Shown: piece after piece, positions 1,989-29,496 of the stretch
Numbering within the stretch: position 1 is the stretch's first letter
How the letters are laid out: each line of letters opens with the position of its first letter
Source: Actinomadura macrotermitis
GTDB taxonomy: Bacteria; Actinomycetota; Actinomycetes; Streptosporangiales; Streptosporangiaceae
DNA: 32,000 bases
Assembly: GCF_009604375.1 (NCBI RefSeq)
Contig: NZ_WEGH01000002.1
Location: forward strand, 364,073-396,072
Direction: 5' to 3'
Translations under genes and position numbers: made by a program
The notes under the pieces: model-generated
Databases searched by the model: none
What the model was told of the DNA's origin: nothing
What the model saw: only the letters and a program-made list of their open reading frames with translations

Positions 1989-2011
1989 ACCGGAGACCGA
2001 GAGGAACCCGC

Positions 2012-3466: not shown

Positions 3467-3505
3467 CCTTTCTCTCCCTCTCCGGCCGTCCCGGCTCGGA
3501 GGTAT

Positions 3506-3542
3506 CATGGCCGGGCGCCCACCGAACGGGCGCCCGGCCATG
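3506..3542 (+). terminator. GC-rich stem-loop (15-bp perfect arms, 7-nt loop) between the serine hydrolase and tetR genes
   Basis: CATGGCCGGGCGCCC-accgaac-GGGCGCCCGGCCATG. It lies 40 nt after the 3466 stop and 41 nt before GTG 3583. No U-tract follows. Confidence 0.45.
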
Positions 3543-3582
3543 CGCAGGCCGGGCCGAGCCGGGCAAGCGAGGGGAGGCGCGG

Positions 3583-7043: not shown

Positions 7044-7054
7044 GGTTCCTCCTG

Positions 7055-8566: not shown

Positions 8567-8594
8567 CGTGGTGGTCCCCTCCTCGTGCGGGCCG

Positions 8595-9419: not shown

Positions 9420-9455
9420 GTGCCCATTTTAAGTGGGCACACGCCCACTCGTCAA
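9411..9455 (-). promoter_or_regulatory. near-consensus leaderless promoter with two embedded palindromes
   Basis: The minus strand reads TTGACG-AGTGGGCGTGTGCCCACT-TAAAAT-GGGCAC-ATG. The -35 is at 9450-9455, the 18-nt spacer is a 7-bp-arm palindrome (9432-9449), and the -10 is at 9426-9431. The ATG follows 6 nt later. A second palindrome TGGGCA-nn-TGCCCA (9413-9426) spans the start codon. Confidence 0.6.
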
Positions 9456-10765: not shown

Positions 10766-10774
10766 GGGCGTCTC

Positions 10775-11035: not shown

Positions 11036-11151
11036 CACGGCTCCCCTTTCTTCATGCGATTCCACCAATGAGTCACAGTGCCGGAGGGAGCCGGTCGCAA
11101 TGAACCCCCAATAGTGGGGGCTGCCCAAATTCGAGTTCACGCGCTAGGGGT

Positions 11152-11185
11152 TTTACGCGCACACGGCGGGCCGTACTGTTGGCCG
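11152..11185 (+). promoter_or_regulatory. putative leaderless promoter of kynU (TTTACG-N16-TACTGT-N6-ATG)
   Basis: Hexamers lie at 11152-11157 and 11174-11179. No Shine-Dalgarno sequence precedes ATG 11186. Confidence 0.4.
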
Positions 11186-12436
11186 ATGACCGATCCGTAT
11201 ATGGAAGAAGCCAGGCGATTGGACGCGGCCGATTCTCTTTCGGGTTTCCGGGACAGGTTCGTGATCACCGATCCCGGCATCGCCTATCTGGACGGGAACT
11301 CACTGGGCCGGCTGCCGCGGTCCACCCGCGACCGGCTGCGCGCGCTCGTCGACGAATGGGGCGCGGACCTGATCGACGGCTGGCGGCGGTGGCTGCCGGC
11401 CGGCCGCGAGGCGGGCGACCTCGTCGCACGGATCGTCGGCGCCGAGCCGGGCGAGGTCGTGCTGTCCGACTCGACCGGCGTCAACCTGTACAAGCTGGCC
11501 GTCGCAGCGCTGGACGCCCGGCCGGGACGCGATGTGATCGTCGCCGCCGCCGACGACTTCCCCACCGACCGGTACATCCTGGACGGCATCGCCGCGGCGC
11601 GCGGGCTCAAGGTGCGGTGGCTCGGCTCCGGCCTCGACGACGCCGTGCGACCGGCCGACGTGGAGGCCGCGCTGGACGCCCGGGTCGCGCTGGTGTGCCT
11701 GTCCCACGTGGCGTACCGGTCCGGCGCGGTGGCCGACCTCGCCGGGGTGACGAAAGCGGCGCACCGGCACGGCGCGCTGGTGCTGTGGGACCTGTGCCAC
11801 TCCGCCGGCGCCGTCCAGGTCGGGCTGTCCGCCGCCAACGCGGACCTCGCGGTCGGCTGCACCTACAAGTATCTGAACGGCGGGCCGGGCGCACCCGCCT
11901 TCCTGTACGTGCGGCGGAAGCTCCAGCCCCTGCTGCGGCAGCCGATCTGGGGCTGGTTCGGGCAGACCGACCAGTTCGCCATGGGGCCGGACTACCGGCC
12001 GGTGCCGGCGATCGAACGCTTCCTCGTCGGCACTCCCCCGGTGCTGGCCGGCCATGCGGCGCTGGAAGGGGCGCGCCTGACGGCCGAGGCCGGGATCGAG
12101 GCCATCGCGGCCAAGGCGCGGAGCCTGACCGGGTACGCGCTGCGGCTGGCCGACGCCTGGCTGGCACCGCTCGGGTTCCGGGTCGCCTCGCCTCGCGACG
12201 GGCGGCGGCGCGGCGCCCACCTGACCTTGCACCATCCCTCCGCCTGGCCCGTGTGCCAGGCGGCGAAATCGGCCGGGGTGATCCCGGACTACCGTGCACC
12301 CCAGCGGCTCCGGCTCGGCTTTCCGCCGCTGTACACCCGCCACATCGACGTGCACAGCGGATTGTCGCGGCTGCGCGACGTCGCGGCGACCGGCCGGTAC
12401 AGGGACTTCCCTGACGACCCGAAGGGACTGACATGA
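11186..12436 (+). CDS. kynU: kynureninase (PLP-dependent, aminotransferase class V fold)
   Basis: The N-terminus has FRDRFVI...IYLDGNSLG. The PLP-lysine motif GCTYKYLNGGPGAPAF is the kynureninase signature. 416 aa. There is no RBS, and the ATG lies 6 nt after a TACTGT -10 box. Confidence 0.9.
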   Translation: MTDPYMEEARRLDAADSLSGFRDRFVITDPGIAYLDGNSLGRLPRSTRDRLRALVDEWGADLIDGWRRWLPAGREAGDLVARIVGAEPGEVVLSDSTGVNLYKLAVAALDARPGRDVIVAAADDFPTDRYILDGIAAARGLKVRWLGSGLDDAVRPADVEAALDARVALVCLSHVAYRSGAVADLAGVTKAAHRHGALVLWDLCHSAGAVQVGLSAANADLAVGCTYKYLNGGPGAPAFLYVRRKLQPLLRQPIWGWFGQTDQFAMGPDYRPVPAIERFLVGTPPVLAGHAALEGARLTAEAGIEAIAAKARSLTGYALRLADAWLAPLGFRVASPRDGRRRGAHLTLHHPSAWPVCQAAKSAGVIPDYRAPQRLRLGFPPLYTRHIDVHSGLSRLRDVAATGRYRDFPDDPKGLT

Positions 12437-13245
12437 CGACCACGGGCGACGGCGTCCAGCCGGAGGGCTACCCCGCCCGGCTGGCCCGGCTGACCGACGT
12501 GCCCGACGGCGCGTACCGGACCGTCCGGTACGGACCCGCGCCGGAGCAGTTCGGCGAGTACTGGCCGGGGGGCGACGGGGCGGCCGTGGTCCTGGTCCAC
12601 GGCGGCTACTGGCGCAAGCGCTACCGGCTGGACCTGATGCGCCTGCTCGCCGCCGATCTCAACGCCCGCGGGTTCGCGGTGTGGAACATCGAGTACCGGC
12701 GGATGGACATGGCGGGCGGCGGCTGGCCCGGCACCTTCGACGACGTCTCCGCCGCGCTGGACGCGGTGACCGGCCTCGACGGCGGGGCGGTCGATCCCGC
12801 CCGTGTGGGCCTGGTCGGCCACTCGGCCGGAGGACATCTCGCGCTGTGGGCGGCCCACCGGGCGGCCGGGCCAGGGCGGGTCTCCCCCGCCGCGGTGGTG
12901 TCGCTCGCGGGGGTGTGCGACCTGGTGACGGCCGCGCGGCTGGGGCTGAGCAACGGCGCGGTGGCGGAGCTGCTCGGGGGCGGGCCGGACGACCTGCCGG
13001 AGGTGTACCGGCGAGCCGACCCGATGGCGCTGGTCCCGCTCGGTGTGCCGCAACTGGTGGTGCACGGCACCGCCGACGAGGACGTGCCCATCGAGCTGAG
13101 CCGGCGCTACGCCGAGGCGGCGGGCCGCGAGGCGGTGCTGCTCACCCTGCCGGACGCCGACCATATGGACGTGATCACTCCGGGCACGGCGGCCTGGGCG
13201 CGGATCGCGGAGGAACTGGGCCGGCTCCTGCCGCCCGGCCGGTAA
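12433..13245 (+). CDS. alpha/beta hydrolase, arylformamidase (AFMID/Bna7-type kynurenine formamidase) candidate
   Basis: ATGA overlap with the kynU stop. Motifs present are HGGYW, nucleophile elbow GHSAGGH, and Asp (GTADEDV) and His (DADHMDV) triad positions. 270 aa. Confidence 0.7.
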   Translation: MTTTGDGVQPEGYPARLARLTDVPDGAYRTVRYGPAPEQFGEYWPGGDGAAVVLVHGGYWRKRYRLDLMRLLAADLNARGFAVWNIEYRRMDMAGGGWPGTFDDVSAALDAVTGLDGGAVDPARVGLVGHSAGGHLALWAAHRAAGPGRVSPAAVVSLAGVCDLVTAARLGLSNGAVAELLGGGPDDLPEVYRRADPMALVPLGVPQLVVHGTADEDVPIELSRRYAEAAGREAVLLTLPDADHMDVITPGTAAWARIAEELGRLLPPGR

Positions 13246-13321: not shown

Positions 13322-14920
13322 TCAGCGGCCGTGAATGGCCCGCAGCAGCTCGTAGTTGCTGGGCAGCGTCTCGGCATACTCCCGCTGGCGGCGCTTGACC
13401 TCATCGAACAGCGGTTCCGCCGCGCGCACCGACTCCGGCTTGTAGGCCAGTGCCGGAAGCGGCCGGTCGGGCAGGAATCCCATCCCGGTGAAGATGCAGT
13501 AATAGCTGCCGTTGGTCCAGAAGTTACGGAACTCCGTTTCGAAGTTGCCGTAGTAGTCGCTCTCGCCCGTGATCGGCTGGTTGATCGCGAGCCCGGCCTT
13601 GTACATCGCCATCTTCTCCTGGATGGCGTCGGACAGCTTGAGTTCTTTGTTGGCCTTCCAGAACTCGGTGTCGATGCGCGGCGAGCAGTAGAAGTGGGCC
13701 TGCAGGAAGTCCCGCGTGTCGTCGAACATCACCTGGATCTCGCGGTTGAAGCGGTCCACGAGGGCCGGGTCGAAGTCGCCGTCCGGGATGAGCTTCGCCA
13801 GCCAGTACAGCGCGGCGTAGGTGAAGTAGATGCCGGTGGACTCCAGCGGCTCGACGAAGCACGAGGCGAGTCCGACGCTGACGCAGTTCTTCACCCAGGC
13901 CCGGCGGTTGCGGCCGACGCGGAACCTGACGTGGTTGAACGTCTCCTTCTCAGGGTCCAGGCCCCACATCCGGCTGAACTCCTCGGTCGCCTCGTCCTGG
14001 GAGGCGAACCGGCTGGAGTACACGTAGCCGGTCCCGAACCGGTCCAGCATCGGGATCTTCCAGGTCCAGCCGGACTTCATCGCGATGGACGAGGTGTACG
14101 GCTCGACCCCGAGGCGCTCGTCGTCGTTGGGGATCGCCGTGGCCACCGCGCGGTCGCACAGCAGGTGGTCGCTCATGTCCACGAAGGGCTCGCCCATGGC
14201 CTTGTTGATGAGCAGGCCGCGGAACCCCGAGCAGTCCACGAACAGGTCGCCTTCCAGCACCCTGCCACTGGCGGTGCGCAGGCCGGTGATGTGGCCGCGC
14301 TCGTCCAGCAGCGCCTCCTGCATCGTGTCCTGGACATGCTCGACGCCCTGGCGCCCGGTGGCGAAGCGGCAGAGGAAGTCGGCGACGAGCTGGGCGTCGA
14401 AGTGCCACGCGTACCGGGTGGCACGGCGGCCGTCCAGCCACCGGGGCCCCCGCTTGGCGTCCATCATGGCCGGTTCCGCCATGCAGGCGTAGTCGAAGGG
14501 CTCGTCGGTCTTCCCGGCGTGGTGGCGCTGGAACCAGTAGTGCGACAGCGGGATCTGGTCCTCGTCCGGCAGCAGGCCGAACGGGTGGTGGAACTGGTCG
14601 GGGCGTCCGTCAAGGTCGCGCGGGGTGCTCTGGGACTCACCGGGGCTGCGCCAGTTGATGAACTTGACCGCCAGCTTGAAGGCGGCGTTGCATTCGCGCA
14701 TCCACTCGTCCTCGGGGATGCCGAGGTAGTCGAAGAACGCCCGCTGCAGGTTCGGCACGGTCGCCTCGCCGACGCCGATGCGCGGGATCGAAGGGGCCTC
14801 CAGCACCGTGATGTCCACGGTGCCCTGTAAGGCCTTGCCCAGATAGGACGCGGCCATCCAGCCGGCCGTCCCCCCGCCGAGAATGACGATCTTCTTGATG
14901 CGGTTGCCGAAGGCGTCCAT
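13322..14920 (-). CDS. flavin-dependent tryptophan halogenase, RebH/PrnA-like (Trp 7-halogenase clade)
   Basis: [19 protein letters not shown] (GxGxxG), catalytic Lys context [21 protein letters not shown] (WxWxIP) and [11 protein letters not shown] (catalytic Glu) are present. Near-colinear similarity along the whole length to my recollection of RebH and PrnA. 532 aa. Confidence 0.93.
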
Positions 14921-14978
14921 GGTTTCCCTGCCCTTCTCCGTGTTTCACGTTCGCGGTGCGGATCGCTGGACCGCGGGC

Positions 14979-15728
14979 TCACACCCTCGCCCGCAGATCC
15001 CAGAGTTCGGGGTAGAAGCGCTTGGCCGTGGTGGCGTGCAGATAGGCCACCCCGGCGGAACCGCCGGTGCCGCGCCGCCGCCCGATGAGGCGCTCCACCA
15101 TGGGGACGTGCCGGGCCCGCCAGAGCCCGAAGCCCTCGTCGTGCTCGATCATCGCCTCGGCCAGCCGGACCAGCCCGTCGCCGGGCACCTCCGCCCGGTA
15201 CAGCTCCACCAGGTCGGGATCGCCCTGCCGCGTGCGCAGCCGCCGGAACTCGTCCCACAGGGACGGTTCGGCCATCCGGCGCTCCAGCCGGGTCCGCTCG
15301 GGCTCCGACATGCGCGTCGTGGTCAGGTAGTCCGGATCCTTCAGCCCGGACAGGAACTCGATCTCGCGGAACTGGACCGACTGCAGGCCGCTGGAGCCCG
15401 CCAGCGTCCCGCGCAGCGCGGCGAAGCCCCCCGGGCTGATCGTCTCCAGCGTGGCGACCTGCGCGACCAGGATCTCCTCCACCGCGCGGACGCGCCGCAG
15501 GCAGTACACCGCGCGCGGGATGTCGTCGGCCGCCACCGCCGCGACGGCCGCGTCCAGCTCATAAAGGACGATCTTGAATTGCAGCTCGTACACCTGGTGC
15601 ACGGTGAAGAAGAAATGCGCGTCGTGCGCCTCCGCCGACTCCCGCTGCAAGGACAGCAGCGTGTCCAGCCGCAGGAAGTCCCCGTAGCGCGGTTCCCACG
15701 ACGCCGGCTCCGCCGGCGCCCGCGACAT
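14979..15728 (-). CDS. kynA: tryptophan 2,3-dioxygenase (heme-dependent)
   Basis: Distal His region FFTVHQVYELQFK. Proximal His and the GTGGS motif are in WRARHVPMVERLIGRRRGTGGSAGVAYL. The ATG shares 1 nt with the TauD stop (TGATG). 249 aa. Confidence 0.88.
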   Translation of the reverse strand: MSRAPAEPASWEPRYGDFLRLDTLLSLQRESAEAHDAHFFFTVHQVYELQFKIVLYELDAAVAAVAADDIPRAVYCLRRVRAVEEILVAQVATLETISPGGFAALRGTLAGSSGLQSVQFREIEFLSGLKDPDYLTTTRMSEPERTRLERRMAEPSLWDEFRRLRTRQGDPDLVELYRAEVPGDGLVRLAEAMIEHDEGFGLWRARHVPMVERLIGRRRGTGGSAGVAYLHATTAKRFYPELWDLRARV

Positions 15729-16594
15729 CAGTAGGACTCCTTCGCGTTCACGCGGGCCGGCGCGTAACGCTCGCCCGGCCTGGGCCGGAAGTGCTCCCAC
15801 CGGGGCCGGTCGCCGTCGGGGCTGTCGCCGAGGACGACGACGCGCAGTCCCGTCCGGCGCTCGGCGTAGTCGTCGACGGCATAGTGCTGCGTGGCCCTGT
15901 TGTCCCAGATCGCCACGTCGCCGTCCCGCCACCGGTGGCGGCAGGTGAACTCCGGGGACGTGGAGAACTCGCAGAGGAACTGCAGGAGCGCGTCGCTCTC
16001 GTTGCGGCTGAGCTGCGCGATGTGCGAGGTGTGGGCCCGGTTGACGAACAGGGACCGCCGCCCGGTCTCCGGATGCACCCGGACGACGGGGTGCTCCGCC
16101 CTGCTGTCCAGCCCCGGAATGTGGATGGCGTGGATCGCGGTGAGGCCGTCGAGCAGCTCGCGCAGAGGCGCCGACAGGGCCTCGTACGCCAGGTACTGGT
16201 TCGACCACATGGTGTCGCCGCCCGTGCCGGGACTGCGCACGATCTGCAGGATGGAGCCGATGGGCGGGTTCGGCGAGTAGGTCATGTCGGTGTGCCAGAT
16301 CGGGATCTTGCCGTCCTGCTCCGAGTCGATGATCTGAATCTCCGGATGCCCCTCCAGATGCGGCAGGTAGGGGTGGACCTCCAGTTCCCCGAAGCGCCGG
16401 CCGAACGCCACGCGCGACCCGGGCGGCCAGTCGTGCTGGCCCCGGATGAAGATCACCAGGTATCTCAGCAGCAGCCGGCGCAGCTCCGCGAACTCCTCAT
16501 CGGTGATCTCCGCGAGCCGCACGCCGCGGACCTCGGCGCCCAGCGCGCCCGACAGCGGCCGGACATCGAACGCCGTCGTCATTGACTCCGCCAT
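15728..16594 (-). CDS. TauD/TfdA-family Fe(II)/2-oxoglutarate-dependent dioxygenase
   Basis: HxD facial triad in [10 protein letters not shown] and the distal His in [11 protein letters not shown]. The N-terminus [19 protein letters not shown] is typical of the family. An alternative ATG exists at 16582. 288 aa. Confidence 0.88.
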
Positions 16595-16641: not shown

Positions 16642-17931
16642 TCACTCCGGCGCGAGCGAGGGCATCGCCCTGCGATCGGGCAGCACGCCCAGCTGGAAGA
16701 GCCTGTCCAGCGGCCCGAGGCGGCGCATGCCGAGGCCCGACATGTTGTAGGTCGTCAGATAGCTGAGCCGCGCGCTCCTGGCCGTGCCGGACAGCAGCCG
16801 CCGGCCCAGCAGCCGGCCGCCGCGCGACGTGGAGGTCATCATGCGCGCGGCGTTGTGGCTCATCGCGTGGACGTCGCCGATCCTGCCCATCCGCTGGTCC
16901 TCGTAGCCGCGCAGCGCCCCGTCCACCGCCGCGCCGTCACCAAAGTCGATGCCGGAGAGCCGGGCGGCGAGCGCGTGCGCGTCGCCGATGGCCGTGTTCA
17001 TCCCCTGGGCGGCCAGGGGATGCACGCTGTGCGCGGCCTCACCGATCAGGGCGATGCCGGGCCGCGCCAGCGACGCGGCCACGTACCGCCAGACCTTCAG
17101 CAGCTGGCGGCGGTCCAGGCCGCCGGGGATCGCGGACGCGAGCGGGCCGAGCGCGGGCACCTGACCGACGAGTTCCGCGGTCCACCGCCGCAGCCGGTCC
17201 GCCCCACCTCCCCTCATCTCGTCCGCCGTCACCTGGACATAGACGCGTGTCGCCCCCTCCGGCAGCGGATAGACCATGACCAGCCCGCGGTCGGTGACAT
17301 AGGCGGACACCTCGCCGGCGACCGGCGGCGGGCACGGCAGCTCGAAGGTCAGGAGCCGGTGACCGTAGGCGACGGGCTCCGCCGCGATCCCCGCCGACCT
17401 GCGCAGCCGCGAGGACATGCCGTCCGCCGCCACGACGAGCCGCGCGCCGATGTCGCGCGTGGCGCCGCCCTCGGTGACCCGCACTCCGGCGACACGGCCG
17501 CCGGGGTCCCTGATGACGTCGTCCACCAGGACACCGCGCCGCCACCGCACCGTCGGGCCCAGCGACTCCCCGAGGCACTCCAGGATCGTCGTGTAGTGGT
17601 GGGACAGCATCCAGGACCGCTCGCCGCCGAGCGCCCCGAAGTCCATGGCCAGCAGTTCGGCGCCGTCCGCCCTCCTGGCGACGAGCCGGTCGATGCGGAC
17701 CGCCCGCCTGGCCTCCAGCGTGCGGAGCACGTCCCACCCCTGCAGGATGTCCAGCGAGCCGGGCTGGAGGACCTCGCCCTTCGCGATCGGGGGCTGCCGG
17801 CGCTTCTTGTCCAGCAGGACCACGTCCAGCCCGAGCCTGCCGAGGGCGTTGGCCGCCGCCAGGCCCGCGACGCCTGATCCGCAGATCACGACGTCGGCGT
17901 CCAGGGGTTGCGGCGCGTATCCCGTTGTCAT
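16642..17931 (-). CDS. FAD-dependent monooxygenase (group A), squalene-epoxidase-like signature; candidate terminal-olefin epoxidase
   Basis: Motifs: GxGxxG (VVICGSGVAGLAAA), AKGEVLQPGS (compare squalene epoxidase GELLQPGG), DG motif AADGMSSRLRR, and GD motif GEAAHSVHPLAAQGMNTAIGDA. ATGA overlap with the cyclase stop. 429 aa. Confidence 0.8.
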   Translation of the reverse strand: MTTGYAPQPLDADVVICGSGVAGLAAANALGRLGLDVVLLDKKRRQPPIAKGEVLQPGSLDILQGWDVLRTLEARRAVRIDRLVARRADGAELLAMDFGALGGERSWMLSHHYTTILECLGESLGPTVRWRRGVLVDDVIRDPGGRVAGVRVTEGGATRDIGARLVVAADGMSSRLRRSAGIAAEPVAYGHRLLTFELPCPPPVAGEVSAYVTDRGLVMVYPLPEGATRVYVQVTADEMRGGGADRLRRWTAELVGQVPALGPLASAIPGGLDRRQLLKVWRYVAASLARPGIALIGEAAHSVHPLAAQGMNTAIGDAHALAARLSGIDFGDGAAVDGALRGYEDQRMGRIGDVHAMSHNAARMMTSTSRGGRLLGRRLLSGTARSARLSYLTTYNMSGLGMRRLGPLDRLFQLGVLPDRRAMPSLAPE

Positions 17932-19655
17932 GACGCCCTCTGTTTCTCGAACGGGCCGTCCGCCGCCGCGGCCCGGTAGCTCCCGAGCGCCTTGAGGGCG
18001 AGCCCGTTGACGATCAGACCGTCCACGTAGTAGGCGAGATCGCGGATGTGCATGCAGACCGGGCTCGCCTTCCACAGGCCGTCGCTCTGCTGGGCGGAGA
18101 CGATCCATCCGGCCGCGCGCCGCAGGCGCGGGTCGTCCGCCGGTACGCCGCAGGCGAGCAGGCCCCGCAGGGCCCACGCGGTCTCCTCCACCGTCCCCGC
18201 CGAGGCGTCGTCGCCGGGCGTGCCGGTCTCACCCGGCCCCCACGACCCGTCCGCGAGCTGGGCGTCCAGCAGGGCCTCGCGGGCGCGCACGGCGACCGGG
18301 TGGCCGGCGAGCCCGGTACGGCCGAAGGCCACGAGCGCCATGGACGTCCCCGGAGTGAGCCCGCGGTACCAGAGGGCCTCATAGGTGCCGTCGGCACGCT
18401 GGTGGGCGAGCAGCCAGTCCAGCGCCTTGCCGATTCCCGGGTCCTGCCGGGAGGCGCCGCCGTCGAGCAGGACTTCGACGGACTGCGCGGTCACGTAGGG
18501 GCACGGGCCGTCGTTCGCGAGCGTGGTGTCGGGCACGAAGGTCCCCCACGAGCCCGTGCGGTCCTGCCGCGACTCCAGCCAGCGCAGCCCGCGCCGCAGG
18601 CTCTCCGCCCCGTCCTCCCCGCCGCCTTCCCGGCCGGCCGCCACGAGGGCGGACAGCACATTGGCGCTGTCGAGGATGTTCGGCCACCCCCGGGGCCCTT
18701 CCCAGCCCCAGCCGCCGGGGGGCGCGTCGAAGATCGCGAACGCCTCGTCCTGCTGGCAGCCGCGCAGCCACCGCCTCGCGCGCGCCAGCCGGGGGTCGGC
18801 GGCGAACCCGGCATCCGCCAGGCCGCGCGCGATGTAGGAACCGCCGATCAGATCGAGTCCCTGCATGATGTGCCAGGAGCCGTCCGCGTGCACGTTCGAC
18901 CGGAGGTAGCCGACGGCCTCGGAGATCAGGGCGTCCGGCGCGCCGGCGCAGCACAGGCCGATGCACACCACCGCGACCAGCCAGTTGTCCCCGCCGTAGC
19001 CGCCGCGATCGTTCTCGCCGCGTTCCACCTCCGCGAGCGCGCGGAGCCCGGCCGATCTGGCCGGCCGGCTCAGCAGGCGCTGGAAGCCCTTCGGCGGGCT
19101 GTGCCGCGCCTGGACGAACGCCATGGCGACGAAAGGCGCCACCCGGAAGGACAGCCGGGCACGCCAGAACCGCCGGGGGAGCATGAGCAGCTCCAGCGGG
19201 ATGCGCCGTGCCCCCCGGATGTCCCCGAGGCCCGCCAGCATGAGGAAGGTCGCGGCCATGTGGGCCATACCGGGATCGGTGAACGCCCGCATCCCACCCT
19301 GCCGGTCCAGCAGGTCCGTCGCGCGCCGCACCGGTTCCCGCGACGCCTGCGGATCCAGCAGGTGCAGGGCCGACGCCGCGACCACGGTCGGCACCGGCTG
19401 CGTGGGGGCTCCGGCGACCCCGCCCCACCCGCCGTCGGCGTTCTGGGCGCCCGCCAGCCACCGGACGCCCCGCTCGACCAGGTCGCGCGAGCGCTCGGGA
19501 TCGGCCAGGTGCAGGGCGACGACCGCGCCGGCCGTGCCCAGTACGGCGGTGGGCCGCCGGTTCGGCCAGGATCCGTCCGGGCGCTGCAGCGCGAACAGGG
19601 CCTCGGCGGCCCGCACGACCGAACCCTCGATCCGACTGTTCATGGTCGCGCACAT
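17928..19655 (-). CDS. squalene-hopene-cyclase-fold (alpha/alpha toroid) class II terpene cyclase-like protein, DxDD motif absent
   Basis: At least 5 QW-type repeats: ALQRPDGSW, WLAGAQNADGGWG, WLESRQDRTGSWG, WLLAHQRADGTY, WIVSAQQSDGLW. The C-terminal half is colinear with SHC. The position aligned to SHC YPDVDDTA reads WPNILDSA. Start 19655 was chosen for GAGGG at -9; the 19760 alternative would overlap ubiA by 70 nt. Confidence 0.8.
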   Translation of the reverse strand: MCATMNSRIEGSVVRAAEALFALQRPDGSWPNRRPTAVLGTAGAVVALHLADPERSRDLVERGVRWLAGAQNADGGWGGVAGAPTQPVPTVVAASALHLLDPQASREPVRRATDLLDRQGGMRAFTDPGMAHMAATFLMLAGLGDIRGARRIPLELLMLPRRFWRARLSFRVAPFVAMAFVQARHSPPKGFQRLLSRPARSAGLRALAEVERGENDRGGYGGDNWLVAVVCIGLCCAGAPDALISEAVGYLRSNVHADGSWHIMQGLDLIGGSYIARGLADAGFAADPRLARARRWLRGCQQDEAFAIFDAPPGGWGWEGPRGWPNILDSANVLSALVAAGREGGGEDGAESLRRGLRWLESRQDRTGSWGTFVPDTTLANDGPCPYVTAQSVEVLLDGGASRQDPGIGKALDWLLAHQRADGTYEALWYRGLTPGTSMALVAFGRTGLAGHPVAVRAREALLDAQLADGSWGPGETGTPGDDASAGTVEETAWALRGLLACGVPADDPRLRRAAGWIVSAQQSDGLWKASPVCMHIRDLAYYVDGLIVNGLALKALGSYRAAAADGPFEKQRAS

Positions 19656-19689: not shown

Positions 19690-20754
19690 TCAACGCAGAC
19701 GCTCCGCCCGTGCCGGCGTGAACGACAGGACCGCCCCCGCGCCGTCCGGCCCGGCGGCACCGGGCGTGTGCGCGCGGTCGCCCGGCGGGAACTCGTGCGC
19801 GGAACGCATCGCCCGCTGGGTGCCGAGGGTGACCGCGAGCATCGGCAGGAGGAGCGCGATCGCCACCGGCAAGCCGAGGCCCGGCACGAGCAGAGCGTCC
19901 GCGAGCACGAGCCGTTCGGCGACGAGCACCTCGTGCGACCGCAGGGCGGCGCGCCACGGCGGGACGCGCCCGGGGACGAAGAGCACCCTGAACGCGTGGC
20001 AGCCGAGCGCCGCGGCGACCAGGGTCACGGCGAGCGACGTCCACCGGCCGCCCGGCACCACCAGGAGTCCCGCCACCGCCGCCGCGACGGCCACGCCGTA
20101 GAGCGCGACGGCGGCCCACGCCCCCGCCCGGACGCCGTGACGCACGGCGAAGGTGGCATAGCCGCCCTCGCGGTCCCCGGCGACGTCGCGCAGCGTCCCG
20201 ACCAGGTTCGAGGCGGCGTCGTGCGCCGAGAACACCAGCACGAACGGAAGCAGCCCGATCGGCGGCGCGGACGTGGCCATCATCGCGCCGAACAGGAGCG
20301 CGCCACCGGTGAGGGCGCCGCGCACGAGGTTGCCCCACAGTCCCCGCGCCTTGAAGAAGCCGTTGTAGGCGACCGCGCCTCCGATGCCGCCCGCCAAGAT
20401 CAGGAGCGTGCGCCAGTTGACGATCAGCGCGACCGCGCAGGCCCCCGCCGCGAGGATCACCCCGCAGGCGAGCGCGGTCGAGGGCCGCAACTGCCCCGAC
20501 GGGATGGGCCGCTGCGGTTTCCCGATCGCGTCGAGGTCGCGGTCGAGGTAGTCGCCCAGGTAGTGCGCCGCGATCCAGACCAGGGTCGGGACCAGCCACG
20601 CGACGAGCGGGCCCGCCGCCTGCCGCCCGCCGCCGGCGATCTCGCGGGTCAGGCTCTCGCCGGCCAGCCCCACCAGGCCGACGTACCAGAGGGTGTAGGG
20701 CCGCCATGTCCGCAGGTGGGCGGTGAGCGTCCTTCGGAACCGGTGGCCGCTCAT
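19690..20754 (-). CDS. UbiA-superfamily membrane prenyltransferase (ChlG/BchG/DGGGP-synthase-like Asp-rich motifs)
   Basis: First Asp-rich motif is HYLGDYLDRDLDAIGKPQRPIPSGQL and the second is LRDVAGDREGG. The protein has multiple hydrophobic TM segments. The ATG abuts the upstream TGA (TGAATG). 354 aa. Confidence 0.88.
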   Translation of the reverse strand: MSGHRFRRTLTAHLRTWRPYTLWYVGLVGLAGESLTREIAGGGRQAAGPLVAWLVPTLVWIAAHYLGDYLDRDLDAIGKPQRPIPSGQLRPSTALACGVILAAGACAVALIVNWRTLLILAGGIGGAVAYNGFFKARGLWGNLVRGALTGGALLFGAMMATSAPPIGLLPFVLVFSAHDAASNLVGTLRDVAGDREGGYATFAVRHGVRAGAWAAVALYGVAVAAAVAGLLVVPGGRWTSLAVTLVAAALGCHAFRVLFVPGRVPPWRAALRSHEVLVAERLVLADALLVPGLGLPVAIALLLPMLAVTLGTQRAMRSAHEFPPGDRAHTPGAAGPDGAGAVLSFTPARAERLR

Positions 20755-21789
20755 TCAGAACCGCCTCCGGGCCGCGTAGTCCGCGATCCCCGCCAGCGTG
20801 ACGACGCTCTCGCAGGCCGGAAGAGCCGTGAGGCGGTCCTTGGCCTGGCGGATCAGCCCGGCGGCGACCTCCCCGGCCGCCTCCCGGGCGCCCGTCGCCT
20901 CCAGGACCTCGCTCACCACGGCGTAGGACCTGTCCGCCGGCTGGTCTTCGTGGAAGGCACGCGCCAGCCTCTTGCGCTCGTCGGCGGAGGCGCGCTGGTA
21001 TCCCAGCAGGATCGGCAGGGTGGGGCGATGGTTGTGCAGATCGCTTTCCTGGGGCTTGCCGATGAGCGCGGACGTGCCGTCGAACGCCAGCAGGTCGTCA
21101 CGGATCTGGAAGGCGACGCCCAGGCGGCTCCCGAAGACGCCCAGCGCCTCGACCCACTCCTGCGGAGCGTCGCCGAGGATCGCACCCGCCCGGCAGGACG
21201 CCTCGAACAGCGCCCCCGTCTTCAGCCCGGCCATCGTCAGATACCGGTCGACCCCGCACTCCAGGTCGCCGACGAGCTCGGTCTCCATGAGCTGCCCGCG
21301 GCACACGCTCAGCCCGGCCTCGGCCGTGACGTTCACGAGCGCCACGACGGCGTCCGCCGGGACGTCCCCGGGCAGCGGGCCCGTCAGGGCCGCGAAGGTC
21401 TCCAGCAGCAGCCCGTCTCCGGCGACGATGGCGGACGCGAGGCCGAAGGCCGCCTGGACCGAGGGGCGGCCCCGGCGCATGTCGTCCTCGTCGATGATGT
21501 CGTCGTGGACCAGCGTCGCGACGTGCAGGTACTCCAGGGCGAGGGCCGGCCGGGCCAGGTCCTCGGGACGGCCGCCGACGCACCGTGCCGACTCGAGCAC
21601 CAGCAGCGGCCGGAGCAGCTTGCCCGCCGGCACCAGGGCGTACTCCGAGATGCGGTCCAGCAGGTTGTCGTGGCGGCCCTGCCAGAGCCCGAGCAGGTCG
21701 CGTTCCAGAAGGTCGCGGCCCTCCAGGAACGCGGCCGGGTCCGGCCGCCCGGCCGCTCGTAAGTGTGCGTCTTCGTCGATCGTGCTCAT
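20755..21789 (-). CDS. trans-polyprenyl diphosphate synthase (IspB/GGPPS-like)
   Basis: FARM LVHDDIIDEDDMRRG and SARM FQIRDDLLAFDG are present. ATGA overlap with the FAH-gene stop. 344 aa. Confidence 0.92.
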   Translation of the reverse strand: MSTIDEDAHLRAAGRPDPAAFLEGRDLLERDLLGLWQGRHDNLLDRISEYALVPAGKLLRPLLVLESARCVGGRPEDLARPALALEYLHVATLVHDDIIDEDDMRRGRPSVQAAFGLASAIVAGDGLLLETFAALTGPLPGDVPADAVVALVNVTAEAGLSVCRGQLMETELVGDLECGVDRYLTMAGLKTGALFEASCRAGAILGDAPQEWVEALGVFGSRLGVAFQIRDDLLAFDGTSALIGKPQESDLHNHRPTLPILLGYQRASADERKRLARAFHEDQPADRSYAVVSEVLEATGAREAAGEVAAGLIRQAKDRLTALPACESVVTLAGIADYAARRRF

Positions 21790-22610
21790 GGCGTGAACGA
21801 CCTTTCTCGTTCGCTTCCGGCGGCGTCCGGCTCCCGGGCCGCGCCGGACGGCTCGTCGATGGTGTTGCACAAGGCGCCGATGCCCTCGATCGCCACCTCG
21901 ACCCGGCTGCCCGGCGGCAGCGGACCGGAGCCCGCGGGGGTACCGGTGAGGATCACGTCCCCGGGCAGCAGCGTCATGTGCTCGCTGACCAGGGCGATGA
22001 CGTCGTGGACCGGGGTGCGCAGTTCCCGGGTGCTGCCGCGCTGCCGGATCGCGCCGTCCACGCTGCACGTGATCTCGGCGTCCGCCACGTCCAGGTCCGT
22101 CGCCAGCCAGGGCCCCAGGGGCGTGCAGCCGTCGAAGTGCTTGGCCCACACCAGGTCCCCGGCCGGAGCGCCGCCGTCCTGCGGGTGCGCGTACGCCGTG
22201 ATGTCGTTCGCGCACGTGTAGCCCGCCACGACCTCCTCCGCATGCGCCGGGAGGACCTTCTTGCAGCGCGTTCCGATCACGATGGCCAGTTCCGCCTCGT
22301 GCTTCAGCAGCCAGGGGCGCCCCGGATGGCCGATGGAGGTCCAGGGGCCGGTGAGCGATGACGGCGGCTTCAGGACGACGGCGGTGGAGGCGGGGTCCGC
22401 CGGGCGCCCGGTCCCGTGGTTGAGGGCGATGCAAACGACCTTGGTCGGCTCGGCGGGGGCCAGGACCGTGACCTCGCTGATCGGCCGCGCGGGACCGGAG
22501 CGCCGCACCCAGCGCCTGGTGTCCCGGTCGTAGTCGGCCGGGACGACGTGGTCGTCGTCGACGCGCCCGTATCCGCGCCGGCCACCGTCGGAATACCTGC
22601 AGACGAGCAT
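21786..22610 (-). CDS. fumarylacetoacetate hydrolase (FAH) family protein
   Basis: HEAELAIVIG metal-binding region, NDITA, and C-terminal LLPGDVILTGTPAG. ATG 22610 is preceded by GGAAGGAG-N5 and is preferred over 22625. 274 aa. Confidence 0.85.
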   Translation of the reverse strand: MLVCRYSDGGRRGYGRVDDDHVVPADYDRDTRRWVRRSGPARPISEVTVLAPAEPTKVVCIALNHGTGRPADPASTAVVLKPPSSLTGPWTSIGHPGRPWLLKHEAELAIVIGTRCKKVLPAHAEEVVAGYTCANDITAYAHPQDGGAPAGDLVWAKHFDGCTPLGPWLATDLDVADAEITCSVDGAIRQRGSTRELRTPVHDVIALVSEHMTLLPGDVILTGTPAGSGPLPPGSRVEVAIEGIGALCNTIDEPSGAAREPDAAGSERERSFTP

Positions 22611-22647
22611 GTGTGCTCCTTCCATGCGGACCGGGCAAGAGGCGGTC

Positions 22648-23880: not shown

Positions 23881-23965
23881 GGGGTGGCGCTCGGGAGAAC
23901 ACGCGCTTTTCAGCCAGGGGCCGGGGCGGTGCGGGAGCGTAGCACGCGCCCTGGTGAACGAACAC

Positions 23966-24010
23966 CCCGGCTAATCAGGAATGGTCCGCACAAGCGGAGC
24001 CCGGCAAAGT
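23966..24010 (+). promoter_or_regulatory. copy B of shared upstream element (CCCGGCTAATC-N24-CCGGCAAAGT)
   Basis: Sequence CCCGGCTAATCAGGAATGGTCCGCACAAGCGGAGCCCGGCAAAGT ends 47 nt before ATG 24058. Confidence 0.5.
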
Positions 24011-24057
24011 CGATTTCACGCCGAGCGCCAGAATCAACCCTTCCTGGAGATCTTCCG

Positions 24058-26640
24058 ATGCTATATGACCCACCGGCGGCGGTCATCGCCCCGGCCGGCA
24101 GAATCGACCGCTCCCTCCGGGCAGAGGCACGCCGCACCGCATTTCTCTTCCAGGACGGGGTGATGCTGGCCTCCGCGGTCCGGGCGCTGGATGCGTTCGG
24201 GCTGCTCGACGGCGCACCGTACGGCAAGGGCGACCTCCCCGACAGCGGATATCTGCGCGCTCTCTGGCGCGGCCTGGCCGCCGCCGGCTGGATCGACCCC
24301 GCCCCCTCCCCCGCCTGGACCGAACGCGGCCGGAACGCGCTTCGGAACCGCTCGCGCTATGTCGCCGGCGGCCGGTTCCTCGCCCGCTTCGACGACAACG
24401 CGCCCGACTCCTGGGCCAGGCCCTGGGACGGCCCGGCCGAAGCCGCCTTCGCCGAAGCGCTCGACACGCACGAGACGTGGCGCCGCACCGCCGACCCGGA
24501 CGCGCCGGGCACCGTCCACCTCGACGCGCCCCTCGCCCTTCCCGCGATCCTGACGCTGCACGGGACGGGACGCCTCCACCGCCCCGGCGGGGACTTCGCC
24601 CGCCTCTTCCGGCTCCTCGGCTGGCTCGGCCCCGACGGCGCGTGGACCCCGCGGGGACGGGCGGGTCTCGACTTCGCCGGCCACTGCGGCCTCATCGGCT
24701 CCTACCTTCCGATGCTGAGCCGGCTGGAACCGCTGTTACGCGGCGAGCTGCTCGTCGTCCCGGGGGACGGCGAGTGGCACTGCCAGCGCCGGATCAACGT
24801 CGAGGCGAGCTCGGCGGCCCACCGGCGGTATTTCACCGACGCCGACCCCGTCATCAGGGAGATCTTCCGGCGCAGGCCGCGGCCCGCGTTCATCGCCGAC
24901 ACGGGGTGCGGCGACGGGAGCTGGCTGGCCCACCTGCACGGCATGCTCGGCGACGGCATCCGCTACGTCGGCATCGACGTCAGCCCGGTCGCGCTCGACC
25001 GCGCCCGTGCCGTCCTGGAGGCGGCCGGCGTGCCCGACCCGCTGCTGCTGCCGGGGGACGTCACCGACCCCGACGCGCTGGCGAGGCTGCTCACCCGGCA
25101 CGGGCTCGCCATCGAGGACGGGCTGCACATCCGGTCGTTCATCGACCATGACCGCACCTATGCCGGCGGGGACCCCGCCAGCGGCGCACCCGGCCGGTCC
25201 TCAGGCGCCTATGTCTCCCCGGACGGCGCCCCGCTGAGCCCCGCGCAGATCGAGTCGGACCTCGTCCGGCATCTCCGGCGCTGGGCGCCCCACGTCCGCG
25301 AGCACGGCCTCGTCGTCCTGGAGGCGCACAGCGTGGCCCCGCGCCTGGCCCGGCGCCACCCCGGCGCACTGCACTCGGTGGCCCTGGACACCTATCACGC
25401 CCTGTCCCACCAGTACCTCGTGGAGCACTCCGCGTTCCTGCACTGCTGCCGCCTGGCGGGGCTGGAACCCGTGGGCCACCTGGAGCGCCGCTACCCGAGC
25501 GGCCGCCCCTTCGTTGCGGTCTCCCTCAACCATCTGGTGCCCGCCAGGCCGTTCCCCCGCCACGAGCCGGCCGAGCGCCGCGACACCTGGCAGCCGGAGC
25601 CGGGCACGGACCTGGCCGACGGCCGGAAACTCCACGATCTGCTGTTCACCGGCGGTGACCTGACCCGGCCCCGGGGGTGGTGCGCCGGAGCGACCGGGAT
25701 CGTCGTGCGGCATGTGCTGGAGGCCGTGGAGTCCCGCATCGGGCAGGTGCGCCCGGGCGACGCCGTCCGGGTGCTGGACTACGGCGCGGGAACCGGCCTG
25801 GCGTCCATCGAACTGATCAAGGCGTGCGCCGAGCGGGACGTCCCGGGCCGGCTGGCCGAGCGCGGCGCCTCCCTCGAACTGCATCTGGTGGACATCCCAG
25901 GCAGTTGGTTCGCGCAGGGGTTCGCGCTGCTGCGCGACCTGTCATGGACGCGCTTCCACGCGTTACGCGGCGCCGATGGCCGGTTCCGCCCGCTCCTCGA
26001 CGTCACCGCGGGCCGGCAGGTGGACGCGGTGCTGGCGAACATGGTCTTCCACCTGCTCGACGACAAGGCGATGCGCAAGGCCGTGCCCTCCATCGCCGGG
26101 GTGCTGCGGCCGGGAGGCGTCCTCGCGTTCAGCGCGCCCGACCTCGCCGCGCCGGCCGCGGATTCCCTGCTGTTCCACGACGCCAACCGCCTGATGCGCA
26201 GGTACTGGCTCGCCGCCCTTGACGACGAGCGCCCCGAAGCCCTCTCCCCCGTCCTGAGGGAGGCGGCGGCGAGCGTTCGCGGCGTGTCGCGCTCCAGCGC
26301 CCAGCGGCGCGCGGACCGCCGGATCCTGCCGAGACCGCGGCACGGCGACGCGGTCGCCGCGGAGCTGGCACCGTACTTCGCCGGGGCCGTCGAACGCCGT
26401 ACCTACGAGATCCTGGCCGAGGAATGCCTGATGGCCGCGCTCGTTCCGGCCAACCAGCGGGAGTATCTCGCGGAGATCTCCGACCCGGTTCTACGCGAGG
26501 AGGTGATTCGCCATCTCCTCCTCGACCGGGTGCTGCCCGAACTGATGGACGGCCCCGCCGGAACGGCGCACGGGCTCAACCTGGAATGGAAGATCGGCCG
26601 GTTCACCCGAACGGCCCCTAGCACACATGCGGTCGAGTGA
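24058..26640 (+). CDS. 860-aa protein with two class I SAM-methyltransferase domains in tandem plus an N-terminal ~250-aa domain
   Basis: ATG 24058 is preceded by GGAGA-N8. MT motif I number 1 is FIADTGCGDGSW (24889-24924); number 2 is VLDYGAGTG (25771-25797), followed by VLRPGGVLAFSAPD. The 23884 start in the track lies within promoter-like sequence. Confidence 0.75.
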   Translation: MLYDPPAAVIAPAGRIDRSLRAEARRTAFLFQDGVMLASAVRALDAFGLLDGAPYGKGDLPDSGYLRALWRGLAAAGWIDPAPSPAWTERGRNALRNRSRYVAGGRFLARFDDNAPDSWARPWDGPAEAAFAEALDTHETWRRTADPDAPGTVHLDAPLALPAILTLHGTGRLHRPGGDFARLFRLLGWLGPDGAWTPRGRAGLDFAGHCGLIGSYLPMLSRLEPLLRGELLVVPGDGEWHCQRRINVEASSAAHRRYFTDADPVIREIFRRRPRPAFIADTGCGDGSWLAHLHGMLGDGIRYVGIDVSPVALDRARAVLEAAGVPDPLLLPGDVTDPDALARLLTRHGLAIEDGLHIRSFIDHDRTYAGGDPASGAPGRSSGAYVSPDGAPLSPAQIESDLVRHLRRWAPHVREHGLVVLEAHSVAPRLARRHPGALHSVALDTYHALSHQYLVEHSAFLHCCRLAGLEPVGHLERRYPSGRPFVAVSLNHLVPARPFPRHEPAERRDTWQPEPGTDLADGRKLHDLLFTGGDLTRPRGWCAGATGIVVRHVLEAVESRIGQVRPGDAVRVLDYGAGTGLASIELIKACAERDVPGRLAERGASLELHLVDIPGSWFAQGFALLRDLSWTRFHALRGADGRFRPLLDVTAGRQVDAVLANMVFHLLDDKAMRKAVPSIAGVLRPGGVLAFSAPDLAAPAADSLLFHDANRLMRRYWLAALDDERPEALSPVLREAAASVRGVSRSSAQRRADRRILPRPRHGDAVAAELAPYFAGAVERRTYEILAEECLMAALVPANQREYLAEISDPVLREEVIRHLLLDRVLPELMDGPAGTAHGLNLEWKIGRFTRTAPSTHAVE

Positions 26641-27943: not shown

Positions 27944-27951
27944 GGGGCGCC

Positions 27952-28182
27952 ATGGACGGGCGACGGTGGCGGGTCCAGGTCGATCGGCGCACCTGCATCG
28001 GCTCCGGGCTGTGCACCGCGATCGCCGAGGAGCACTTCGCGCTGGTCGAGGGGCGCTCCCGGCCGGCGGCCGAGGTCATCGAACCGGACGACGCCGTCAT
28101 CGACGCCGCCGACTTCTGCCCGGTCGAGGCGATCCTCGTCCGCACGACGGACACCAGGACCGTCCTCGCCCCCCAGCCGTGA
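27952..28182 (+). CDS. small [3Fe-4S]-type ferredoxin (P450 redox partner)
   Basis: The pattern CIGSGLC...(~40 aa)...CPVEAI matches the actinomycete P450-linked ferredoxin pattern. GAGGGG lies upstream. An in-frame GTG at 27940 is an alternative start. 76 aa. Confidence 0.8.
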   Translation: MDGRRWRVQVDRRTCIGSGLCTAIAEEHFALVEGRSRPAAEVIEPDDAVIDAADFCPVEAILVRTTDTRTVLAPQP

Positions 28183-28225
28183 CCAGCGCGCCCGGTCGTC
28201 GCGCCCGGCCCGGAAAGGATTCCCG

Positions 28226-29464: not shown

Positions 29465-29496
29465 GGCGTTCCCTTCCCTACAGCTGGGAGACAACT

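Follow-up and report, generated by a model that had tools for sequence, protein, structure and literature searches.

Replacement of the DxDD acid motif of squalene-hopene cyclase (SHC) defines an enzyme family known from the clusters for phenalinolactone (2006), brasilicardin (2008) and tiancilactone (2018), the mechanism of which was explained in 2024. Dong et al. reportedly described the tiancilactone (tnl) cluster of Streptomyces sp. CB03234/CB03238 in 2018, with TnlT2 as its type II cyclase. The family of noncanonical class II meroterpenoid cyclases includes AtoE, Bra4, PlaT2, TnlT2 and Lon15 and displays the motif xxx(D/E)(S/T)xx, also xxx(E/D)(T/S)xE, and the motif of clade VI, to which PlaT2 and TnlT2 belong, is xxxD/Exxx (PMC11600129). 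The tiancilactones bear chloroanthranilate and gamma-butyrolactone moieties (PMC10301674).

AtoE, the cyclase of the atolypene sesterterpenoids in Amycolatopsis tolypomycina, turns over a synthetic epoxide in vitro, an activity that is abolished in the E314A mutant and not in E317A. Mutagenesis and the in vitro assay identified Glu314 as the residue that protonates the epoxide, a role proven on the Glu of this clade III enzyme and not on an Asp, and five further AtoE homologs also accepted the epoxide in vitro. AtoF together with the synthase produced terminal diols from epoxide hydrolysis, and the combination of atoC, atoE and atoF gave no cyclised product, while AtoE accepted the post-prenylation epoxide without a diphosphate (PMC11600129). 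In the phenalinolactone pathway, PlaT3 prenylates, PlaT1 epoxidises and PlaT2 cyclises. The combination PlaT4321 yielded the tricyclic 3-hydroxy core, cyclisation was lost and no tricyclic products were obtained without PlaT2, diterpenoids were absent when plaT421 was used without plaT3, and the products of plaT431 were prenylated and oxidised but acyclic (PMC11317874). All products of the family carry an oxygen at C-3, and the two 2024 studies disagree on the order of prenylation and epoxidation (PMC11317874, PMC11600129). In the characterised pathways, cyclisation acts on an epoxidised prenyl chain that the UbiA enzyme has linked beforehand to a C3 keto- or amino-acid unit.

The cyclase and its acid motif

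The window analysed here comprises 32,000 nucleotides from Actinomadura macrotermitis. It encodes a class II meroterpenoid cyclase of noncanonical type, 575 residues long, on the minus strand (17928-19655), counted from the ATG at 19655; the NCBI annotation uses the ATG at 19643 and gives 571 residues. Residue numbers below refer to the 575-residue protein. Both Pfam domains, SQHop_cyclase_N and SQHop_cyclase_C, were matched. The first-pass annotation had described at least five QW repeats and colinearity with SHC, which agrees with our count of five strict repeats (Q.{2,5}G.W, at residues 24, 71, 364, 466 and 522) and with an hhalign alignment to SHC of 503 columns at a probability of 99.8%. 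The AF2 model had a pLDDT of 92.4, and its top Foldseek match was SHC (2sqc) with a TM score of 0.80. The beta-gamma double alpha-barrel, the QW repeats and the colinear alignment are shared with SHC from A. acidocaldarius (PDB 1gsz/2sqc) and with oxidosqualene cyclase (OSC, PDB 1w6k), and the size and didomain fold fit the noncanonical class II meroterpenoid cyclases (about 534-604 residues).

The acid motif W324-P325-N326-I327-L328-D329-S330-A331-N332 is encoded at positions 18660-18686 of the minus strand, in place of Y-P-D374-V-D376-D377-T-A-V in SHC. The reverse complement of positions 18669-18680 reads AACATCCTCGAC and codes for N-I-L-D, and the earlier reading of WPNILDSAN where SHC has YPDVDDTAVV was correct. 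A phmmer search of the PDB with the single sequence produced only off-diagonal alignments of QW repeats, from which the register of the motif could not be fixed, and it was therefore taken from a MAFFT alignment of 120 homologs plus SHC and from hhalign. Both methods placed N-I-L-D329-S-A-N in the columns of SHC D374-V380, with N326, I327, L328 and D329 opposite D374, V375, D376 and D377, and Q391 in the column of H451. This answers, at the level of alignment, which residue occupies the acid position, a point that had been set out for checking. Compared to SHC, D374, D376 and H451 are thus replaced by N, L and Q, and the acid has moved to the position of D377.

The D376 column contained Leu in all 120 homologs, and the D377 column was acidic in every one of them (38 Asp and 82 Glu). 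Distant homologs from Planctomycetota and other phyla (25-31% identity), aligned by the same method, have kept PDADDT at the same column. Taken together, the conserved column and the distant PDADDT motifs show that the substitution is due neither to chance nor to decay. An intact acid motif elsewhere would count against the replacement, and none was found: a search of the whole protein for the strings D.D[DT] and [DE].[DE][DE] revealed no DxDD, DxDTT or other acidic cluster. A search of genome contigs with the cyclase as the single query recovered the close clade and, beyond it, only very distant homologs bearing DxDD, and missed the ESAE clade, which is approximately 45% identical to the window cyclase. 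That search still served as a control, in that the distant homologs carry DxDD.

The position of D329 and SHC D377 presumably corresponds to C456 of OSC by motif register, and the central acid D376 of SHC to D455. With D329 at the D377 position and an invariant Leu at D376/OSC D455, the likeness to the VxDCTAE motif of OSC that was drawn in the first-pass annotation holds for the use of one acid, but not for the position of that acid. The cyclase remained far below the NCBIfam cutoffs for TIGR01507 (115.4 versus 431.1 bits), TIGR01787 (134.6 versus 322.7 bits) and TIGR03463 (84.9 versus 851 bits). In central acid, His partner and NCBIfam scores alike, it falls outside the canonical squalene-hopene and oxidosqualene cyclases.

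The sequence NILDSAN fits the clade VI motif xxxD/Exxx as described in PMC11600129. AtoE (PMC11600129) and the window cyclase have in common the family, the fold, the gene cassette and the motif register W-x-x-x-x-acid-S/T-A, with W309, M311, E314 and E317 of AtoE spaced identically to W324, N326, D329 and N332. AtoE belongs to the xxxETAE clades, with Glu and a C25 substrate, whereas the window cyclase has Asp and Asn at these positions. AtoE uses a single acid to protonate an epoxide, and the window cyclase is likened to it in this on sequence grounds; D329, the one acidic residue remaining of the former DxDD motif, is the predicted Brønsted acid based on the work on homologs. Instead of squalene, the substrate would be a prenyl chain of head-to-tail type that bears a polar tail, a further difference from SHC and OSC.

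The conserved cassette and its neighbours

Four core genes are contiguous on the minus strand (20755-21789, 19690-20754, 17928-19655 and 16642-17931). Upstream of the cyclase are a polyprenyl, probably geranylgeranyl, diphosphate synthase homologous to PlaT4 (20755-21789; Pfam polyprenyl_synt, 66% identical to its tnl-locus counterpart) and a UbiA-family prenyltransferase homologous to PlaT3/AtoD (19690-20754; Pfam UbiA, Asp-rich motifs DYLDRDLD (residue 68) and DVAGD (residue 190), 70% identical to its tnl-locus counterpart). The cassette of polyprenyl synthase, UbiA enzyme, cyclase and FAD monooxygenase was found in both clades (loci L001, L002 and L003).

The last core gene (16642-17931, minus strand) encodes a predicted flavin-dependent epoxidase homologous to PlaT1/AtoF. 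The stop codon of the cyclase overlaps its start codon in ATGA, which indicates translational coupling, and the earlier description of a coupled, squalene-epoxidase-like gene with GEVLQPG is borne out by this overlap and by the Pfam match to SE (42.3 bits, cutoff 20.1). The protein also matched FAD_binding_3 (124 bits) and carries GSGVAG at residue 18, a GxGxxG signature of the FAD fold, and GEVLQPG at residue 52, in line with a squalene-epoxidase-like enzyme of the PlaT1/AtoF type. Its identity to the homologs is 72% in the tnl locus, 69% in the pla-like locus and 51% in the bra/ato-like locus.

The tiancilactone producers Streptomyces sp. CB03238 (P0009, locus L003) and CB03234 (L007) have a single homolog, to which the cyclase is 74% identical over its full length and with which it shares WPN[IF]LDSAN. 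The label TnlT2 is given to this homolog based on strain identity and cluster content. Seven neighbouring genes are 66-85% identical to their counterparts in the tnl locus, with which the window shares the P450, the FAH protein, the polyprenyl synthase, the UbiA enzyme, the cyclase, the FAD monooxygenase and the TauD protein. Three of these genes, all on the minus strand, are conserved in both tnl and pla-like clusters: the Fe(II)/2-oxoglutarate dioxygenase of the TauD family beside the core (15728-16594; Pfam TauD 227 bits, 85% and 78% identity, respectively), the fumarylacetoacetate-hydrolase-family (FAH) protein (21786-22625; Pfam FAA_hydrolase, 66% and 62%) and the cytochrome P450 (22648-23829; Pfam p450, 70% and 62%).

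Like the tnl locus of CB03238, the window also contains, close to the core, a flavin-dependent tryptophan halogenase (13322-14920, minus strand; Pfam Trp_halogenase 551 bits), a tryptophan 2,3-dioxygenase (TDO)-like protein (14979-15728, minus strand; Pfam Trp_dioxygenase, TIGR03036 below its cutoff), an AMP-dependent ligase (7055-8617, minus strand; Pfam AMP-binding, 69% identity to the tnl-locus gene) and a region with a carrier protein and a flavin reductase (6264-7054, minus strand; Pfam PP-binding and Flavin_Reduct). The halogenase, whose closest relative of solved structure is the Trp 6-halogenase Thal (E 4e-275), would start the route to chloroanthranilate. With a kynureninase (11072-12436, plus strand; Pfam KYNU_C and Aminotran_5) and an alpha/beta-hydrolase as the formamidase candidate (12415-13245, plus strand; Pfam BD-FAE/Abhydrolase), the gene content of a tiancilactone-type cluster is complete by Pfam, from core cassette, Trp halogenase, TDO, formamidase and kynureninase to the acyl-activating ligase with its PCP. 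Compared to tnl, the window is from another genus, the gene order differs and the TDO is only 31% identical. Within 10 kb around the tnl core there is no counterpart of the kynureninase/formamidase pair adjoining the core, the 918-residue AprA-MT2-like double methyltransferase, the PapA-like acyltransferase or the deoxysugar genes of the window.

As for the phenalinolactone system, with PlaT2 from Streptomyces sp. Tu6071 (PMC11317874), the cyclase is approximately 73% identical to the homolog in the pla-like locus L002. This locus contains pyrrole-carboxylate and deoxysugar genes and has no polyprenyl synthase within the operon. Like PlaT1/2/3/4, the window has the xxxDxxx motif of clade VI, and its four genes follow the same logic of prenylation, epoxidation and cyclisation, whereas the acyl unit in pla clusters is a methylpyrrole-carboxylate rather than a chloroanthranilate. 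A role of the UbiA-cyclase pair in cyclic menaquinones or carotenoids, and a xiamycin-like indole terpenoid cluster, were also considered and dropped; gene contexts and literature point to the PlaT1-4 cassette.

Proposed pathway and alternative readings

The gene product is very probably a PlaT2/TnlT2-type enzyme among the noncanonical class II meroterpenoid cyclases, opening epoxidised prenyl chains by a single acid. This assignment is based on the fold, the motif, its conservation in the family, the operon structure and the orthologs in the tnl and pla-like loci; the likely epoxide substrate, acid role of D329 and product skeleton are drawn from published work on homologs. PlaT2- and Bra-type enzymes had rightly been named as comparators in the first-pass annotation, and its proposal of an epoxide-initiated cyclisation with one acid gains support from the AtoE epoxide assay and the E314A mutant, from the epoxidases AtoF and PlaT1 and from the need for PlaT2. 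The proposed epoxy-prenyl substrate stands as far as epoxidation is concerned; in the characterised pathways it is not a plain epoxy-prenyl diphosphate, but a chain already joined to the C3 unit.

Judged from the homologous phenalinolactone and atolypene systems, the polyprenyl synthase would supply GGPP, and a C3 alpha-keto-acid unit would be attached to the prenyl chain by the UbiA enzyme. The terminal double bond would then be epoxidised by the ATGA-coupled flavoenzyme, and protonation of the epoxide by D329 would allow the cyclase to open the ring and start a cation cascade, closing a tricyclic 3-hydroxy-perhydrophenanthrene core. Decoration by the TauD and FAH proteins, the P450s, the chloroanthranilate supply, the AMP ligase/PCP, the methyltransferases and the sugar genes could lead to a tiancilactone/phenalinolactone-like antibiotic.

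The first-pass annotation had also raised a non-catalytic or binding role. On such a reading, the SHC-fold protein would have lost the DxDD acid and would bind or chaperone the prenyl chain as a partner of the UbiA enzyme. We regard this as extremely improbable. The loss of the central acid D376 to Leu and of the partner H451 to Gln would be compatible with such a role, and a natural UbiA-cyclase fusion among the homologs (P0012, 926 residues) shows close physical cooperation, but strict retention of the acid at the adjacent position, the in vitro activity of AtoE and five homologs with E314A being dead (PMC11600129), and the disappearance of all tricyclic products without plaT2 (PMC11317874) argue against it. 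A protein that protonates an olefin by another acid, similar to SHC or ent-CPP synthase, next to an aromatic or late-stage hydroxylase, is very improbable. The best NCBIfam models of the flavoenzyme are indeed of the UbiH/aromatic-hydroxylase type, although all below cutoff, and the anthranilate moiety could undergo hydroxylation. However, DxDD is absent from the whole protein, the translationally coupled flavoenzyme scores above the SE cutoff and accompanies the cyclase even in clusters without an aromatic unit (L001 and the ato cluster), and both the diols formed with AtoF and the C-3 oxygen of the family products speak for an epoxide.

Epoxide opening could also follow the order proposed in 2006, where the cyclase acts first on 14,15-epoxy-GGPP and its product, a cyclised diterpenyl diphosphate, is then transferred by the UbiA enzyme onto the C3 unit. 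The lack of diterpenoids from plaT421 and the acyclic products of plaT431 (PMC11317874), as well as the lack of cyclised product from atoC, atoE and atoF and the acceptance by AtoE of an epoxide without a diphosphate (PMC11600129), make this order unlikely, even though it has long been the order proposed for pla, bra and tnl (PMC11317874).

Novelty and the wider cluster

The motif replacement is real and the epoxide-opening interpretation is supported, but neither is new, since the family of actinomycete enzymes has been published. What is new is limited to an uncharacterised member of the family, encoded in a cluster that has additional tailoring genes. No structure of an AtoE/Bra4/PlaT2/TnlT2/Lon15-type enzyme was found in the PDB, which makes an Asp-type clade VI cyclase a target for structural work. 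If the assignment is true, such a structure could reveal how a carboxylate is held in place one residue past the classical acid and how it is activated with no His partner.

The additional genes for a methyltransferase, an acyltransferase and sugars point to a congener other than tiancilactone. Phenalinolactone and tiancilactone differ in stereochemistry at C-3, which limits how exactly the substrate and product can be predicted here. In the Actinomadura cluster, chloroanthranilate genes of the tiancilactone type occur together with deoxysugar genes of the phenalinolactone type, the double methyltransferase and the acyltransferase, and we give an even chance to a new glycosylated, chloroanthranilate-bearing perhydrophenanthrene meroterpenoid as its product. 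The species description of A. macrotermitis does not mention the cluster. The window draws attention to an uncharacterised cluster of the tiancilactone/phenalinolactone kind in an Actinomadura from the termite gut, and new antibacterial meroterpenoids may come from its additional tailoring genes. The same cluster is present as an ortholog in A. litoris.

The acid motif of the cyclase

The cyclase gene is located on the minus strand at positions 17928–19655 of the window, a stretch of high-GC actinomycete DNA (72.7% GC), and encodes 575 amino acids if translation starts at the ATG at 19655 or 571 amino acids from the ATG at 19643, as annotated by NCBI. The product is 100% identical to P0001, an Actinomadura macrotermitis protein named 'prenyltransferase/squalene oxidase repeat-containing protein'. 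The reverse complement of positions 18669–18680, AACATCCTCGAC, translates to N-I-L-D, part of W324-P-N-I-L-D329-S-A-N332, and five strict QW repeats were counted. The stop codon overlaps the start codon (ATGA) of a flavoenzyme gene at 16642–17931, which displays the motifs GSGVAG and GEVLQPG, a Pfam FAD_binding_3 match and a squalene epoxidase (SE) domain match above the SE cutoff. Alignment of the family to squalene-hopene cyclase (SHC) with hhalign gave 503 colinear columns at a probability of 99.8%. The sequence observation in the first-pass annotation (NILD, at least five QW repeats, colinearity with SHC, ATGA coupling and a squalene-epoxidase-like signature) was thus confirmed in every detail.

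A single-sequence search against the PDB yielded only off-diagonal repeat alignments, and profiles were therefore used for the motif register. The SHC reference was PDB 1gsz (identical at 631/631 residues), aligned with 120 homologs by MAFFT and with a 44-sequence family alignment by hhalign. Both routes agreed on a gap-free register, anchored by GGW...W/Y-P upstream and S/T-A downstream, in which N326, I327, L328, D329, S330, A331 and N332 correspond to SHC D374, V375, D376, D377, T378, A379 and V380, respectively. The alignment check proposed earlier to fix the acid position hence places D329 in the D377 column. The surviving Asp is indeed the only acid left in the motif, but it occupies the fourth motif position and not that of the central acid of SHC; by the VSDCTAE register, it is not at the acid position used by oxidosqualene cyclase (OSC) either. 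H451 is the partner of D376 in SHC, and its column contains Q391 in the window protein and Gln in 116 of the 120 homologs. A search of the rest of the cyclase for D.D[DT] or any further acidic cluster was negative, and this covers the intact DxDD that the first-pass annotation had named as evidence against its reading.

The SHC-D376 column is Leu in all 120 homologs. At the D377 column, the 38 closest homologs have Asp (WPN[IF]LD[ST]AN) and the remaining 82 have Glu (WPVTLESAE). As an internal control, the same alignment procedure was applied to 55 very distant homologs (25–31% identity) from Planctomycetota, Verrucomicrobiota and Acidobacteriota, all of which retained PD[ACV]DDT at exactly the motif column, opposite PNILDS of the window protein. 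Because of the invariant Leu, the Asp/Glu split and these controls, the replacement is, at the sequence level, a conserved and clade-defining feature. Decay or misalignment as its cause was ruled out by the conservation in 120 homologs and the distant DDT control. The control sequences derive from a large set of SHC-fold homologs in metagenome-assembled genomes of the three phyla (L023–L081).

The AlphaFold2 model, with the family alignment as input, was confident (pLDDT 92.4, pTM 0.92) and placed the acid motif at the N-terminus of helix 327–338. Foldseek against the PDB ranked SHC first (TM 0.80), followed by a bacterial drimenyl diphosphate synthase, human OSC and ent-CPP synthase. A profile search for a solved structure closer than SHC found none.

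Proposed cyclization mechanism

The replacement of the motif is already described and mechanistically explained in the literature. The name 'noncanonical class II meroterpenoid cyclases' has been given to Bra4, PlaT2, TnlT2, Lon15 and AtoE, in which xxx(E/D)(T/S)xE takes the place of DxDDTxx (PMC11600129, Chem Sci 2024). In that study, purified AtoE, the atolypene cyclase, converted a synthetic epoxide to a tricyclic product, activity was lost in E314A but not in E317A, and five further homologs accepted the same epoxide. Among 103 homologs surveyed there, every clade had one conserved acid, with xxxD/Exxx in clade VI (PlaT2/TnlT2), and the epoxidase AtoF with the synthase gave terminal diols, which are hydrolyzed epoxides. 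The spacing of AtoE W309, M311, E314 and E317 equals that of W324, N326, D329 and N332. For phenalinolactone, PlaT1–4 were sufficient for the 3-hydroxy tricyclic C23 core, no cyclization occurred without PlaT2, and the UbiA enzyme PlaT3 works ahead of cyclization (PMC11317874, RSC Chem Biol 2024). In a published phylogeny, these enzymes fall into a clade termed 'epoxy-polyprenyl cyclase' (PMC12324236). Judged by its sequence, the window cyclase is a new member of clade VI in a tiancilactone/phenalinolactone-like cluster; its interest is small with respect to mechanism and modest with respect to finding new natural products.

The analysis itself demonstrated the fold, the register of the motif, its conservation, the coupling within the operon and the orthology; beyond these, the homologs suggest a pathway in which the UbiA enzyme would link GGPP to a C3 keto-acid unit and the flavoenzyme would epoxidize the terminal olefin. 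Protonation of the epoxide by D329 would start the cascade to a 3-hydroxy-perhydrophenanthrene, after which lactone formation and oxidation of the core would fall to TauD, FAH and P450s, and chloroanthranilate would be attached via the AMP ligase and PCP. Epoxide-initiated cyclization with one acid, the main interpretation of the first-pass annotation, is supported by the experiments on AtoE and PlaT1–4.

The alternative offered there, a non-catalytic or binding role, conflicts with both the invariant acid and the active homologs. Protonation of an olefin, with the neighboring flavoenzyme an unrelated hydroxylase, is contradicted as well, since the flavoenzyme has an SE domain and is translationally coupled to the cyclase, both genes co-occur in clusters without any aromatic unit, and all family products carry the C-3 oxygen. 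The older order, in which epoxy-GGPP is cyclized first, appears disfavored by analogy, as both reconstitutions of related pathways speak against it (PMC11600129, PMC11317874). On the order of prenylation and epoxidation, the two studies disagree.

Gene neighborhood and related clusters

The minus-strand operon contains, from 5' to 3', genes for a P450 (22648–23829), a FAH-family protein (21786–22625), a polyprenyl synthase (20755–21789), a UbiA prenyltransferase (19690–20754), the cyclase, the FAD monooxygenase, a TauD dioxygenase (15728–16594), a TDO-like protein (14979–15728) and a Trp halogenase (13322–14920). Also present in the window are genes for a kynureninase, a hydrolase resembling formamidases and an AMP ligase, as well as a PCP/flavin-reductase region; together with the halogenase and TDO genes, the kynureninase, formamidase-like, AMP ligase and PCP genes cover the complete path that leads from tryptophan to activated chloroanthranilate. 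For the halogenase, the nearest relative is the Trp 6-halogenase Thal (E 4e-275), and the 7-halogenase RebH comes just behind. A 6-halogenase would yield 4-chloroanthranilate via the kynurenine pathway, which is one possible regiochemistry here.

Genes for polyprenyl synthase, UbiA, cyclase and FAD monooxygenase form a cassette that was found around homologs of both the Asp and Glu clades. It occurs in Micromonospora (L001) alongside genes for an aminotransferase, glycosyltransferases and an NRPS, in Streptomyces (L002) alongside genes for pyrrole-carboxylate and deoxysugars, as is typical of phenalinolactone clusters, and in Streptomyces sp. CB03238 (L003). CB03238 and CB03234 produce tiancilactones, phenalinolactone analogues with chloroanthranilate and gamma-butyrolactone moieties (PMC10301674). 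Identities between the window and the CB03238 locus were 85% for TauD, 74% for the cyclase, 72% for the FAD monooxygenase, 70% for both UbiA and the P450, 69% for the AMP ligase and 66% for both the polyprenyl synthase and FAH, and in both a Trp halogenase and TDO adjoin the core. In Actinomadura litoris, the whole cluster is syntenic (76–94% identity). A 926-residue Polymorphospora sp. protein (P0012), 77% identical to the window cyclase, is a natural UbiA-cyclase fusion, which suggests that both enzymes operate at the membrane as one physical unit.

The TDO-like protein (249 residues) scores under the TIGR03036 cutoff and is 31% identical to the TDO of the CB03238 locus, 70% to an Actinoplanes flavus protein and 90% to its ortholog in A. 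litoris. Recruitment of the chloroanthranilate branch may have been an independent event.

Compared with the tiancilactone and phenalinolactone-like loci examined, the window additionally contains a double methyltransferase, a PapA-like acyltransferase and deoxysugar genes. The first (23884–26640, plus strand) has 918 residues and two methyltransferase domains, one, the first, of the AprA MT2-like family (PF23525, 223 bits); it is kept in A. litoris (84%), and no counterpart was seen up to 10 kb from the core of the tiancilactone or phenalinolactone-like loci. Further along the plus strand lie the PapA/condensation-like acyltransferase (27944–29464), a MycE-like methyltransferase (about 29470–30666), a dTDP-4-dehydrorhamnose 3,5-epimerase (about 30600–31313) and, from 31057 to the end of the window at 32000, a GFO/IDH/MocA oxidoreductase. 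The deoxysugar and acylation genes at 27944–32000 point to a glycosylated product, unlike the content of the tiancilactone locus.

At the left window edge, the plus strand carries an unassigned ORF (1–711), a P450 (about 750–1988), a beta-lactamase-family protein (about 1990–3466) and a TetR regulator (about 3470–4182). A Na+/H+-exchanger-family membrane protein (9452–10774, minus strand) has a counterpart in the CB03238 locus (14314–15609; 37% identity, partial match) and may function in export or self-resistance.
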